Shown here in pieces: positions 2,574 through 6,008 of a stretch of 64,000 nucleotides of DNA. How positions within the stretch are numbered: the stretch's first letter is position 1; every line of letters begins with the position of its first letter. The stretch lies in NCBI RefSeq assembly GCF_013315695.1, contig NZ_CP054353.1. One strand, given 5' to 3'. Both the position numbers and the translations under genes were made by a program. The stretch comes from Escherichia coli. GTDB taxonomy: Bacteria > Pseudomonadota > Gammaproteobacteria > Enterobacterales > Enterobacteriaceae. Below the pieces are notes generated by a model that was given only the letters and a program-made list of their open reading frames with translations, did not search any database and was not told the origin of the DNA.

Positions 2574-4510
2574 AACCCACTTTATATACTGCTACTGGTG
2601 AGTGCGTTACGCCAGGCCGTGAACTGGGCAAAGGCGGTGAAGGTGCGGTTTATGATATCGAGGAGTTTGCCGATAGCGTCGCCAAGATTTATCACACGCC
2701 GCCACCCGCCTTAAAACAGGACAAACTTGCCTTTATGGCTGCGACAGCTGACGCGCAGTTGTTGAATTATGTCGCCTGGCCGCAGGCAACGCTTCACGGT
2801 GGACGAGGCGGAAAAGTAATCGGTTTTATGATGCCAAAAGTTTCTGGTAAAGAACCGATTCATATGATCTATAGCCCGGCACATCGTCGTCAACGTTACC
2901 CTCATAGTGCGTGGGATTTTCTACTCTATGTTGCGCGCAATATTGCTTCATCTTTTGCTACGATTCACGAGCACGGGCACGTCGTGGGTGACGTAAACCA
3001 GAACAGCTTTATGGTAGGTCGCGACAGCAAAGTAGTGTTGATTGATAGCGACTCCTTTCAGATTAACGCCAATGGCACGCTGCATTTATGCGAAGTCGGC
3101 GTGTCGCATTTTACGCCGCCAGAGCTACAAACCTTGCCATCATTTGTCGGCTTTGAACGCACCGCGAATCACGATAATTTTGGCCTTGCGTTGCTGATTT
3201 TTCACGTCTTGTTTGGTGGGCGGCATCCTTATTCCGGTGTACCGCTTGTCTCTGATGCGGGTAATGCACTGGAGACGGATATTGCCCATTTCCGTTATGC
3301 CTACGCGTCAGATAATCAGCGACGTGGTTTAAAACCGCCGCCACGATCTATTCCGCTGTCGATGTTACCGGGCGATGTTGAAGCCATGTTTCAGCAGGCA
3401 TTCACGGAAAGTGGCGTGGCAACCGGGCGTCCGACGGCAAAAGCGTGGGTAGCGGCACTTGATTTACTACGCCAACAGTTAAAGAAATGTACCGTTTCGG
3501 CAATGCATGTTTATCCCGGTCATTTGGCTGACTGCCCGTGGTGTGCGCTGGATAATCAAGGCGTTATCTATTTTATTGATCTCGGCGAAGAGGTCATTAC
3601 CACCAGCGGTGATTTTGTGCTGGCGAAAGTCTGGGCGATGGTGATGGCGTCAGTAGCACCGCCAGCATTGCAACTGCCATTACCCGATCATTTCCAACCG
3701 ACTGGCAGGCCGCTTCCTTTAGGCCTGTTACGGCGTGAATACATCATTCTGATTGAGATCGCACTGTCAGCGTTATCGCTGTTGCTTTGCGGCCTTCAGA
3801 CAGAACCACGTTATATTATTTTGGTTCCTGTGCTGTCGGCTATCTGGATTATTGGCAGCCTGACAAGCAAAGCGTACAAAGCAGAAATCCAGCAACGCCG
3901 TGAGGCGTTTAATCGTGCGAAAATGGACTATGACCATTTAGTCAGCCAGATCCAACAGTTGGGCGGGCTGGAAGGTTTTATCGCCAAACGGATGATGCTC
4001 GAAAAAATGAAGGACGAAATTCTTGGGTTACCGGAAGAAGAAAAGCGCGATCTGGCAGCACTTCAGGACACCGCAAGGGAACGGCAGAAGCAGAAGTTTC
4101 TGGAGGGATTTTTTATTGATGTTGCCTCTATTCCCGGCGTTGGCCCTGCGCGTAAAGCGGCGTTACGGTCCTTTGGTATTGAAACGGCGGCAGACGTTAC
4201 CCGACGGAGCGTTAAGCAAGTAAAAGGTTTTGGTGATCATCTGACCCAGGCGGTTATCGACTGGAAAGCGAGTTGCGAACGCCGTTTTGTGTTCAGGCCG
4301 AATGAAGCGGTAACGCCAGCAGACAGACAAGCGGTAATGGCGAAAATGACCGCCAAACGACATCGGCTGGAATCGGCGTTGACTGTCGGTGCGACAGAGT
4401 TGCAGCGATTCCGCCTTCATGCTCCAGCACGGACCATGCCGTTGATGGAGCCGCTACGTCAGGCGGCAGAAAAACTGGCTCAGGCGAAGGCTGATTTAAG
4501 CCGCTGCTGA
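2561..4510 (+). CDS. yegI: Eukaryotic-like Ser/Thr protein kinase YegI, with hydrophobic segments and a C-terminal extension
   Basis: 649-aa ORF from GTG 2561. An alternative ATG at 2570 overlaps the yegK stop (ATGA), so the true start may be 2570. Kinase-like N-terminal domain (GKGGEGAVYDI...). Confidence 0.9.
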   Translation: MVTMKPTLYTATGECVTPGRELGKGGEGAVYDIEEFADSVAKIYHTPPPALKQDKLAFMAATADAQLLNYVAWPQATLHGGRGGKVIGFMMPKVSGKEPIHMIYSPAHRRQRYPHSAWDFLLYVARNIASSFATIHEHGHVVGDVNQNSFMVGRDSKVVLIDSDSFQINANGTLHLCEVGVSHFTPPELQTLPSFVGFERTANHDNFGLALLIFHVLFGGRHPYSGVPLVSDAGNALETDIAHFRYAYASDNQRRGLKPPPRSIPLSMLPGDVEAMFQQAFTESGVATGRPTAKAWVAALDLLRQQLKKCTVSAMHVYPGHLADCPWCALDNQGVIYFIDLGEEVITTSGDFVLAKVWAMVMASVAPPALQLPLPDHFQPTGRPLPLGLLRREYIILIEIALSALSLLLCGLQTEPRYIILVPVLSAIWIIGSLTSKAYKAEIQQRREAFNRAKMDYDHLVSQIQQLGGLEGFIAKRMMLEKMKDEILGLPEEEKRDLAALQDTARERQKQKFLEGFFIDVASIPGVGPARKAALRSFGIETAADVTRRSVKQVKGFGDHLTQAVIDWKASCERRFVFRPNEAVTPADRQAVMAKMTAKRHRLESALTVGATELQRFRLHAPARTMPLMEPLRQAAEKLAQAKADLSRC

Positions 4511-4522
4511 GCCATTTTTCAA

Positions 4523-5875
4523 TTAACGAAACACCACTTCCGCCCAGCGTGCCAGCCCGGCGGTGACGGAGCCAAAGTCATCGCCGCCTGCAATCGGAAT
4601 GCCCGGCAACTGTTCTGCCAGCGCTTTTTTAATCAGCGGCGATCGGGCGCTACCACCAGTCAGATAGATGACATCCGGTTTTTCCTGGGCGTTATCCAGC
4701 GCCAGTTGCACCTGTTCCAGAATTCGCGCCAGTGGCTGGTTGAGGGCGCTTTCCAGCCCTTGCTGGCTAATCAGAGTAGCCAGTTCATCGCTGATAAACG
4801 GCAGTGAGGCGCGGGTTTCCGCTACGCTTGAAAGCGCAATTTTGCTCTCTTCTGCGCTACGTACCAGGCGATAGCTTAAACGCTGACGCCAGACTTTCTG
4901 TAACAGGGCCACTTTTTCCGGTTCGCGGGCATCGCGTACCAGATCGTTAAGCAGACGACCATTGGCACTACTGTAGAAATCACTTTGCGCAGGGACGTCG
5001 TTGATGGCAACCGCATTCCACCACGGCAGAATCGGCAGCGCGATGCCTTTTTCGGTTTCGCCACCCATGCCCAGTAACGGCATCAGGTTTTTAAACGCCA
5101 GTGCGATATCCAGATCGTTACCGCCAATACGGCAACCACTGTGACCCAGCAGGCTGGCTTCACGATCGAGGCGCGAACGCCACTGTGGCCCCATTAGCAG
5201 TAAAGAACAGTCAGTCGTACCACCGCCGATATCCACCACCAGCACCCGTTTTTCTTCCTGCAAGGTGGCTTCGTAATCCAGCCCAGCCGCGACCGGCTCG
5301 TACTGGAATACCACATCCTTAAACCCGGCACGCTTCGCCGCGCGTTCCAGAATCCCTTGCGCCTGGGTGTTTGCTTCATCGCCGCCCAGCCCCTGGAAGT
5401 TGATCGGGCGACCAATCACTGCCTGAGTAATTGCCTCCGGCAGTTGAGCCTGCGCCTGCTGGCGAATGTGCAACATCATTGCGCAGACCAGATCCTCAAA
5501 CAGCGCTACCTGCTGCGGTTTTAAGCCGCTGGCACCGAGGAACGATTTTGGTGATTTCACAAACCACACCTCTTCTGGATCATCAATGTACTGTGCCAGT
5601 GAGGAAAGACCGAACTGCACGCTTTTCGCCGTAACATCGATATCTTCTTCGCGGTTATAACGAATCGCCCGACGCAGCAGCGCCTGCGTTTCATCGTCGT
5701 CTGCCGGAACGTCATGATGGCGGTACAGCCATTCGCTTACCGCTTCACGCGTTGGCGCGCAAAGCATTGAAGGCAGCAGCGTGCTGTCGTTTTCCATTTT
5801 TAGCAAATGCGGTTTACCGTCGCGCATGACCGCCACTAAACAGTTTGCTGTACCGTAATCAAAACCAATAAACAC
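4523..5875 (-). CDS. yegD: Hsp70/actin-fold ATPase family protein YegD
   Basis: ORF track gives 4523..5938. The start was trimmed to the GTG at 5875 to give the conserved FIGFDYGTANC N-terminus, 450 aa. Confidence 0.88.
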   Translation of the reverse strand: MFIGFDYGTANCLVAVMRDGKPHLLKMENDSTLLPSMLCAPTREAVSEWLYRHHDVPADDDETQALLRRAIRYNREEDIDVTAKSVQFGLSSLAQYIDDPEEVWFVKSPKSFLGASGLKPQQVALFEDLVCAMMLHIRQQAQAQLPEAITQAVIGRPINFQGLGGDEANTQAQGILERAAKRAGFKDVVFQYEPVAAGLDYEATLQEEKRVLVVDIGGGTTDCSLLLMGPQWRSRLDREASLLGHSGCRIGGNDLDIALAFKNLMPLLGMGGETEKGIALPILPWWNAVAINDVPAQSDFYSSANGRLLNDLVRDAREPEKVALLQKVWRQRLSYRLVRSAEESKIALSSVAETRASLPFISDELATLISQQGLESALNQPLARILEQVQLALDNAQEKPDVIYLTGGSARSPLIKKALAEQLPGIPIAGGDDFGSVTAGLARWAEVVFR

Positions 5876-6008
5876 GAAATAATCCCCATGCCGGTGAAGA
5901 AGGGGCGTGACTTTAGCGAAATGTTGCCGTCGCGACAACCGGAATATGAAAGCAAAGCGCAGCGTCTGAATAACGTTTATGCTGAAAGCGGATTAACAAG
6001 GAGATGCG

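Follow-up and report, generated by a model that had tools for sequence, protein, structure and literature searches.

The convergent yegD–yegI junction of Escherichia coli: a terminator-like hairpin at the edge of an inserted three-gene kinase cassette

In the window analysed here, a stretch of 64,000 nucleotides of the E. coli chromosome, the Hsp70-like gene yegD and the kinase gene yegI converge with 12 bp between their stop codons, and a hairpin with an A-tract on one side and a T-tract on the other lies across the boundary. The tight junction is probably an evolutionary accident made transcriptionally safe, combining a horizontally mobile cassette with a two-way hairpin: the proximity of yegD and yegI would be due solely to the arrival of a mobile three-gene kinase cassette beside yegD. 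The features on which this reading is based are listed below in window coordinates.

861 to 1009, minus strand: Sib antitoxin sRNA (Rfam RF00113, 149.5 bits)
1037 to 4522: Escherichia-specific insertion of 3,486 bp, comprising the yegL promoter region, yegL-pphC-yegI and the hairpin
1156 to 1815, plus strand: yegL, vWA-domain protein, first gene of the triad (RefSeq; Pfam VWA, 4.5e-10)
1812 to 2573, plus strand: pphC (yegK), PP2C phosphatase, named as in RefSeq (Pfam PP2C_2, 3.2e-51)
2570 to 4510, plus strand: yegI, atypical Ser/Thr kinase (RefSeq), TGA stop at 4508-4510
4470 to 4519: putative bidirectional terminator-like element, with A5 at 4470-4474, stem 4476-4483 / 4507-4514, inner helix 4491-4494 / 4499-4502 and T5 at 4515-4519
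4511 to 4522: 12-bp spacer between the yegI and yegD stops, which contributes the yegI-sense U-tract and the final 4 nt of the stem's right arm
4523 to 5875, minus strand: yegD, 450-aa Hsp70-like ATPase with an actin fold, TAA stop at 4525-4523
5876 to 5938, minus strand: yegD leader, the non-coding part of the mechanically called ORF, containing GGGGA

The inserted cassette and its boundaries

The window carries mdtA–ibs/sib–yegL–pphC(yegK)–yegI followed, in convergent orientation, by yegD–alkA–dgcE. RefSeq annotation and the coordinates agree with the gene identities and convergent geometry given in the initial annotation, which had also correctly placed the two stops, the yegI TGA (4508-4510) and the yegD TAA (4525-4523), 12 bp apart on opposite strands. 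E. marmotae and three further E. coli/Escherichia genomes that were examined also have a 12-bp spacer, E. coli strains EC27 and T28R have one of 11 bp, and 5407 of 5426 complete E. coli genomes carry the junction. The genes of the region are already annotated, and the kinase and phosphatase have already been characterised biochemically: YegI kinase activity is known from the literature, and PphC is reported to dephosphorylate YegI (bioRxiv 10.1101/303594, PMC13232886).

Removal of positions 1037-4522 leaves an E. coli sequence that aligns colinearly with Salmonella and Citrobacter, running from the yegD stop through CGCCTCGCAAG into the sib promoter. As this deletion restores the Salmonella/Citrobacter sequence, the triad represents an insertion of 3,486 bp directly adjoining the yegD stop. 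Both genera share the order yegH-asmA-dcd-udk-dgcE-alkA-yegD-ibs/sib-mdtABC without the triad, a Sib sRNA directly following yegD, and by this alignment the Sib sRNA of the window marks the putative ancestral downstream neighbour of yegD. An Rfam scan of 600-6200 returned Sib RNAs only, with none at the junction or in the yegD leader. What E. albertii retains of the triad is limited to decayed pieces of the 3' end of yegI and the 5' end of yegL. Neither target-site duplications nor terminal repeats were seen by eye at the insertion ends, and the insert, with a GC content of 0.48-0.54, is only slightly poorer in GC than yegD (0.56-0.58), a difference that is not diagnostic. On the favoured reading, a self-contained mobile vWA-PP2C-kinase cassette would have inserted right after the yegD stop, pointing towards yegD, before E. 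coli, E. marmotae, the cryptic clades and E. albertii diverged.

The same trio occurs in the same order at six other loci. Triads of approximately 60% identity were identified in Klebsiella, Piscinibacter, Chromobacterium and metagenome contigs without an Hsp70-like neighbour, and four of the six foreign triads lie among defence genes (type I restriction-modification, GmrSD, Mrr, AbiH, KAP NTPase, BrxR, JetB or Tn7-like). As outlined in the account of PMC11090510 (after Anantharaman 2012 and Gao 2020), a TerY-P triad consists of a vWA protein, a PP2C phosphatase and a Ser/Thr kinase. The genes yegL-pphC-yegI encode a vWA protein, a PP2C phosphatase and, according to the literature on its activity, a Ser/Thr kinase, adjacent and co-directional, and the cassette therefore appears TerY-P-like in architecture. 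As far as that outline goes, it resembles TerY-P in three-gene order, domain logic, tight packing and patchy distribution, but YegI differs from the TerY-P kinase in being atypical, with no Pfam Pkinase match and only weak kinase-domain similarity to PADLOC and NCBIfam models, and in carrying a weak helix-hairpin-helix match at its C-terminus (Pfam HHH_5, 21.8 bits, under the 27-bit cut-off) instead of the zinc ribbon or OB-fold described for TerY-P. Homologues of YegI bear the source name 'helix-hairpin-helix domain-containing'. By sequence, YegL falls outside TerY-P (PADLOC TerY model, E=0.019, 12.5 bits), PphC matched no PADLOC model and YegI gave weak matches to PD-T4-6 and MkoA only, so that PADLOC placed none of YegL, PphC, YegI and YegD convincingly in a defence family.

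A two-way terminator-like hairpin

The initial annotation had reported no obvious terminator hairpin between the two stops, which is incorrect. Perfect 8-bp pairing of TGGCTCAG (4476-4483) with CTGAGCCA (4507-4514) straddles the yegI stop and encloses an interior of 23 nt with a further helix (GGCT/AGCC); the A5 run lies one base from the stem, and the T5 run abuts it directly. The element folds at -26.9 kcal/mol on the plus strand (z -4.54; none of 200 shuffles as good) and at -23.1 kcal/mol on the minus strand (z -3.47). No other element of the 64-kb window combines a perfect 8-bp stem with a loop of at most 30 nt and A5/T5 flanks; dinucleotide shuffles predict 0.017 such elements per window, although these criteria were chosen after the element had been seen and are fitted to it. 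A stable G+C-containing hairpin on both strands and a U-tract 3' of it in both orientations, two hallmarks of bidirectional intrinsic terminators, are thus present. A consensus promoter/terminator scan of 3800-6400 called nothing at the junction; it missed the hairpin because its loop limit is 8 nt, and was therefore discounted as a negative result.

From the base pairing and flanks we infer that RNA polymerase would terminate or pause at the hairpin in both directions, the A-tract/T-tract-flanked structure acting as a bidirectional intrinsic terminator or pause site; the final 13 codons of yegI, its stop codon and the 12-bp spacer together make up this structure. The yegD mRNA would end near 4468-4470, antisense through the last ~13 yegI codons, and the yegI mRNA near 4519-4522, just short of the yegD stop, so the two RNAs would overlap by only ~50 nt. 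With the yegI stop placed within the right arm, a ribosome terminating there could interfere with folding of the hairpin when transcription runs in the yegI direction. Neither yegD nor yegI 3' ends appear in the Term-seq supplement of PMC7815308, probably because both genes are poorly expressed.

Bidirectional terminators with a hairpin in the transcript overlap are a prevalent class in E. coli (Ju, Li & Liu 2019, SEnd-seq, as summarised in bioRxiv 10.1101/2022.10.23.513370). Compared with the examples given in that summary, such as ynaJ-uspE, the junction has the same convergent pair with one palindromic hairpin serving both strands, the same A-tract/T-tract symmetry and 3' ends (predicted here) overlapping by a few tens of nt. 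In contrast to the terminators of that summary, the hairpin reaches into a gene: its left arm and interior are the last 13 yegI codons, and its right arm contains the yegI stop.

This coding origin raises the alternative that the hairpin arose by chance from the sequence encoding the YegI C-terminus and has no part in termination, with the ends set by Rho, polymerase collision alone or RNA decay. The left arm encodes the conserved K-L-A-Q motif, and its conservation is confounded because it is coding; no compensatory substitutions were seen in the hairpin in the Escherichia sequence comparison; and both the missing call in the consensus scan and the interior, long for a canonical intrinsic terminator, fit this alternative. 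Set against it are the right arm, the TGA stop and the T5 run, which are Escherichia-specific and exactly complete the hairpin, other genera stopping with TAA or TAG. The right arm TGAGCCA is invariant across eight Escherichia sequences, all of which (8/8) fold into the hairpin, and is absent from the foreign cassettes despite the conserved C-terminal peptide KLAQA.ADL. Both arms and the yegD-sense U-tract are kept in E. coli, E. marmotae and one cryptic clade and partly in E. albertii, and E. marmotae has a degenerate yegI-sense U-tract (TCCTTC). The right arm persists in E. albertii, where yegI is gone. Together with folding z scores of -4.5 and -3.5 and symmetric A5/T5 flanks expected only 0.017 times per window under the fitted criteria, these observations make a chance hairpin very unlikely.

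YegD and its relation to the triad

The GTG start of yegD at 5875 proposed in the initial annotation coincides with the RefSeq start, is kept in 9/9 Enterobacteriaceae loci checked and is preceded 7 nt upstream by the Shine-Dalgarno sequence GGGGA (5887-5883). In alignments, homologues begin at the equivalent residue, and Acerihabitans, Providencia, Vibrio, Shewanella and Aeromonas have ATG at the homologous codon. Position 5938, previously given as the end of the feature, is only the upstream limit (TTG) of the longest ORF and lies outside the gene.

YegD is a member of the NCBIfam PRK11678 equivalog, an Hsp70-like 'molecular chaperone' family (807.4 bits against a cut-off of 331; residues 1-450 of 450 covered), in which identity to YegD is 80-95% within Enterobacteriaceae and 47-54% in Vibrio, Shewanella and Aeromonas. 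It matches Pfam HSP70 and MreB, and its PDB matches are to the nucleotide-binding domains of DnaK/BiP only, the matched stretches lying within the first ~360 residues of the DnaK and BiP chains. In contrast to DnaK and BiP, YegD has the nucleotide-binding domain without a substrate-binding domain. Assignment as a canonical Hsp70 chaperone (DnaK/HscA) was rejected, YegD lacking the C-terminal substrate-binding domain and scoring 71-87 bits against DnaK and HscA models with cut-offs of 620-1019.

A functional link between YegD and the kinase triad had been raised speculatively, with conserved co-occurrence as its test, but the genome comparison did not bear it out. No intact YegL/K/I gene was found within 10 kb of a YegD relative in 79 non-Escherichia species, Salmonella or Citrobacter freundii; the 80 species sampled beyond E. 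coli include E. albertii, the sole one with (decayed) triad remnants. Reciprocally, no YegD relative was found within 8 kb of any of the six non-Escherichia vWA-PP2C-kinase triads (0/6). ORF clustering within 4 kb of 80 YegD relatives identified no conserved cross-family partner gene and recovered only the enterobacterial synteny with alkA, dgcE and mdtABC. Separately, the clustering revealed a J-domain neighbour beside distant Pseudomonas YegD homologues.

We infer from these distributions that YegD and the triad are functionally unconnected. A true partnership, in which YegD works with the triad in Escherichia, e.g. as kinase substrate, chaperone or effector, would be in keeping with an adjacency in Escherichia that predates the divergence of E. 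coli and E. marmotae and with the raised yegD mRNA upon yegJ overexpression (log2 fold change 3.0). It is nevertheless most improbable, given the lack of intact triad genes near YegD relatives in the 80 species sampled beyond E. coli and likewise in Salmonella and C. freundii, and of YegD relatives near the six foreign triads. Furthermore, yegD and the triad are transcribed from opposite strands under separate promoters, E. albertii has lost the triad and kept an intact yegD at 95% identity, and between E. coli and E. marmotae YegD is 97% conserved but PphC/YegI only 81-93%, indicating different evolutionary regimes.

Transcript overlap at the junction

In MG1655, yegD-yegI is among 165 convergent excludons (ExcludonFinder, NAR 2025, Table 1, PMC12288877), inclusion in this excludome requiring overlap in at least 50% of 58 RNA-seq sets. 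The initial annotation had expected each transcript to run into the other; the overlap is thus published for MG1655, but the premise of unimpeded read-through is wrong, a two-way hairpin with U-tracts lying at the junction. The yegD–yegI arrangement is real but ordinary and already described.

The junction shares a short intergenic distance and 3'-3' transcript overlap with convergent excludons (PMC12288877) and with the mscL-arfA 3'-overlap crosstalk (PMC10070815), with the difference that its listing follows near-automatically from the 12-bp spacer and that an effect on expression is only hypothetical here. Excludon-type coupling, in which an antisense 3' overlap of ~50 nt or more lets one gene depress the other as a selected regulatory device in Escherichia, may proceed by collision of RNA polymerases, by RNase III cutting the RNA duplex, or by both. 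Membership of the MG1655 core excludome (PMC12288877), a geometry that makes each mRNA carry the complement of the other's terminator hairpin and the stability of the arrangement in E. coli and its sister clades would be in line with such coupling. We nonetheless regard it as unlikely: with only 12 bp between the stops, the transcripts of any convergent pair are bound to overlap, and a place on the 165-pair list is therefore uninformative on function; both genes are, according to the literature, weakly expressed in standard conditions; and the predicted overlap touches no yegD codon and only 13 yegI codons.

Overexpression of yegJ, a K-12-only gene inside the triad, is reported in the literature to raise yegD mRNA ~8-fold (log2 fold change 3.0) in K-12, which hints at some local regulatory connection. 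It is conceivable, with a probability we would put as very slight, that after the cassette landed Escherichia recruited the shared hairpin and ~50-nt overlap as a switch, in which bursts of yegD transcription may truncate or destabilise the 3' end of the yegI mRNA, or the reverse; bursts of this kind are reported for yegJ overexpression and have been suggested for cells leaving stationary phase. If true, a core Hsp70-like ATPase would be linked in this way to a defence-island kinase module.

Returning to the reading of an accidental junction made transcriptionally safe, the locus is a tidy example of a two-way terminator-like hairpin made from a coding end, a stop codon and a 12-bp flank, and correction of the premise that no terminator is present is useful in itself. 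As yegLKI would be a 3.5-kb mobile TerY-P-like insertion, its adjacency to yegD is unfit as guilt-by-association evidence for YegD function.

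Genes at the yegI/yegD junction

Over the 1.9 kb around the junction, the window matches E. coli chromosomes with 100% identity; of 5426 complete E. coli genomes, 5388 contain at least 80% of these 1.9 kb. RefSeq annotation, which maps one-to-one onto window positions, places the following genes:

about 547-1009: ibs/sib
1156-1815, plus strand: yegL (Pfam VWA)
1812-2573, plus strand: pphC/yegK (Pfam PP2C_2)
2570-4510, plus strand: yegI, kinase gene (sub-threshold Pfam HhH match only), overlapping pphC by 4 bp
4523-5875, minus strand: yegD (Pfam HSP70 and MreB)
6009-6857, plus strand: alkA
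6968-10298, minus strand: dgcE, frameshifted in this strain

A RelE/ParE toxin gene (14138-14475) is likewise frameshifted in this strain, and an IS1 insertion splits wcaM (38132-40303). YegD belongs to the NCBIfam equivalog family PRK11678, scoring 807 bits where 331 are required, and its matches to solved structures lie solely in the nucleotide-binding domains of DnaK and BiP. The 12-bp spacer proposed in the initial annotation was confirmed, with the yegI TGA at 4508-4510 and the yegD TAA at 4525-4523 on the minus strand. The proposed GTG start of yegD at 5875 also holds, as this codon is conserved in 9/9 Enterobacteriaceae loci inspected and replaced by ATG in Acerihabitans, Providencia, Vibrio, Shewanella and Aeromonas, a GGGGA Shine-Dalgarno sequence lies 7 nt 5' of it, and alignments with distant homologues begin at residue 1; the feature end at 5938 is simply the end of a mechanical ORF. 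The yegD leader TAAAGTCACGCCCCTTCTTCACCGGCATGGGGA (5876-5915, minus strand) is near-invariant from E. coli to Enterobacter, with 7 variable nucleotides before the GTG. Its CCCC/GGGG motifs could pair and mask the Shine-Dalgarno sequence; RyhB, reported to activate translation rather than transcription of yegD (PMC4666370), would fit a leader opened by an sRNA.

A hairpin on the junction and predicted transcript ends

Contrary to the initial annotation, which saw no terminator hairpin, folding of 4440-4600 places a long hairpin on the junction on either strand:

4470-4474: 5' flank AAAAA, followed by C
4476-4483: left arm TGGCTCAG
inner helix: GGCT/AGCC
4507-4514: right arm CTGAGCCA
4515-4519: 3' flank TTTTT

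The element has the shape of a bidirectional intrinsic terminator and in isolation folds with -26.9 kcal/mol (z -4.54) on the yegI-sense strand and -23.1 kcal/mol (z -3.47) on the yegD-sense strand. It is absent from a consensus scan because loops were limited to 3-8 nt there. In a custom scan of the whole 64-kb window (8-bp perfect stem, loop of up to 30 nt, A5/T5 flanks) it was the sole hit, against 0.017 expected by chance (mean of 60 dinucleotide shuffles), an optimistic figure since the criteria were picked after the element had been seen; the fold z-scores provide an independent measure. The first 50 kb hold two more convergent junctions, both unlike this one: alkA/dgcE has a 110-bp spacer full of REP-like palindromes (6858-6967), and asmA/HTH-antitoxin a 52-bp spacer with its own strong hairpin (13806-13857).

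The junction is present in 5407/5426 E. coli genomes. Across eight aligned Escherichia sequences, the spacer measures 11-12 bp, the right arm TGAGCCA shows no variation and the yegD-sense U-tract is largely conserved, while the yegI-sense U-tract varies (TTTTT, GTTTT, TTTTCTTTT, and TCCTTC in E. marmotae). The left arm hardly varies, but it encodes K-L-A-Q, so that coding constraint confounds its conservation. The hairpin folds in 8/8 sequences (-17 to -29 kcal/mol), and no compensatory changes were seen among them. That it is a functionless by-product of coding sequence is quite improbable in our judgement. E. coli T28R carries a left-arm G-to-A change (CTGACTCAG, Ala to Thr in YegI) that lowers the stability of the yegI-sense hairpin to -21 kcal/mol, a spacer T-to-G in strain Ch1 extends the stem to 9 bp, and strain I3 has lost the YegI C-terminus together with most of yegD through a rare cross-junction deletion (2536-2931 of that locus).

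As the whole element lies 3' of the yegD stop, the yegD mRNA would be expected to end near 4468-4470 and should pass antisense over the last ~13 yegI codons. The yegI stop is part of the right arm, with the spacer taken up by the U-tract, so that the yegI mRNA would end near 4519-4522. The predicted overlap of about 50 nt, which includes no yegD codon, agrees with the listing of yegD-yegI among 165 convergent excludons, observed in 50% or more of 58 RNA-seq sets of MG1655 (PMC12288877), and with the prevalence of hairpin-bearing bidirectional terminators where E. coli genes converge (bioRxiv 10.1101/2022.10.23.513370). The earlier proposal that the transcripts run into each other stands for MG1655, but not its premise of a hairpin-free junction. 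We found no 3'-end mapping of this junction in the literature, and both genes are reported as weakly expressed (PMC13232886); termination at the hairpin is therefore inferred. Selected regulatory coupling of the excludon type appears rather unlikely to us.

Separate histories of yegD and the triad

Salmonella and Citrobacter freundii share the order yegH-asmA-dcd-udk-dgcE-alkA-yegD-ibs/sib-mdtABC without the triad, and GCGCCTCGCAAG and the sib promoter immediately follow the yegD TAA. The same GCGCCTCGCAAG occurs at 1036-1026 on the minus strand of the window, and E. coli aligns colinearly with both once 1037-4522 is removed, which identifies the triad, together with its promoter region and the hairpin, as a 3,486-bp insertion abutting the yegD stop. 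The locus shows one ibs gene in both species, with sib co-directional after yegD, so yegD read-through would enter sib there; the window has two Ibs toxin genes with Sib antitoxin RNAs at 547-1009 (Rfam RF00113 at 861-1009, a second copy cut at 600-674).

E. marmotae and a cryptic-clade Escherichia share the triad-yegD arrangement with a 12-bp spacer. In E. albertii (L006, 11354-11500), only decayed remnants of both the yegI 3' end and the yegL 5' end directly follow an intact yegD, indicating that the insertion predates the E. albertii split and that the triad was lost there later. Despite this loss, a yegD-sense hairpin tailed by GTTTTCTC can still form in E. albertii (-22 kcal/mol). Between E. 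coli and E. marmotae/cryptic clade (L089, L090), evolutionary rates are unequal, with identities of 81-87% for PphC, 90-93% for YegI, 96% for YegL and 97% for YegD.

The initial annotation had speculated on a functional link between YegD and the triad, to be checked by co-occurrence, and co-occurrence was not found. A YegD profile built from 18 diverse relatives retrieved 80 loci in 80 species that range from Enterobacteriaceae to Alpha- and Betaproteobacteria. Searches for YegL, PphC and YegI, by tblastn and with custom HMMs, detected no triad genes within 10 kb besides the E. albertii remnant. AlkA is the divergent neighbour of YegD in every Enterobacteriaceae locus. In six Pseudomonas loci (L036, L042, L043, L044, L053, L082), distant YegD-like proteins (29-30% identity) adjoin a J-domain (CbpA/DnaJ-like) ORF, which suggests that this subfamily has a co-chaperone that enterobacterial yegD lacks. 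Conversely, YegI homologues of ~60% identity are patchily distributed (Klebsiella spallanzanii, K. aerogenes, Piscinibacter, Chromobacterium and metagenome contigs). The vWA-PP2C-kinase trio is intact and co-directional in 6/6 foreign loci, with a YegD relative within 8 kb in 0/6, and four of the six have defence or mobile neighbours (type I restriction-modification, GmrSD, Mrr, SymE, AbiH, KAP NTPase, BrxR, JetB, an SLFN-like helicase and Tn7-like TniQ/TniB). A genuine partnership of YegD with the triad is therefore highly improbable; its sole hint is that overexpression of the K-12-only gene yegJ raises yegD mRNA (log2 fold change 3.0). The window itself lacks yegJ. The foreign cassettes encode the C-terminal peptide KLAQA.ADL and lack the right arm and T-tract, so the putative terminator is specific to the Escherichia copy.

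The yegL-pphC-yegI architecture is that of TerY-P modules (vWA, PP2C phosphatase and Ser/Thr kinase; PMC11090510), although its sequences are not close to those of the family: the PADLOC TerY model matches YegL with no better than E=0.019. Earlier publications already cover the arrangement, the transcript overlap and what is known of the gene functions. What this analysis adds is small: a description of the hairpin and the precise limits of the insertion. We consider it probable that a mobile TerY-P-like cassette landed next to the vertically inherited core gene yegD, where a two-way hairpin terminator would insulate the two from each other.
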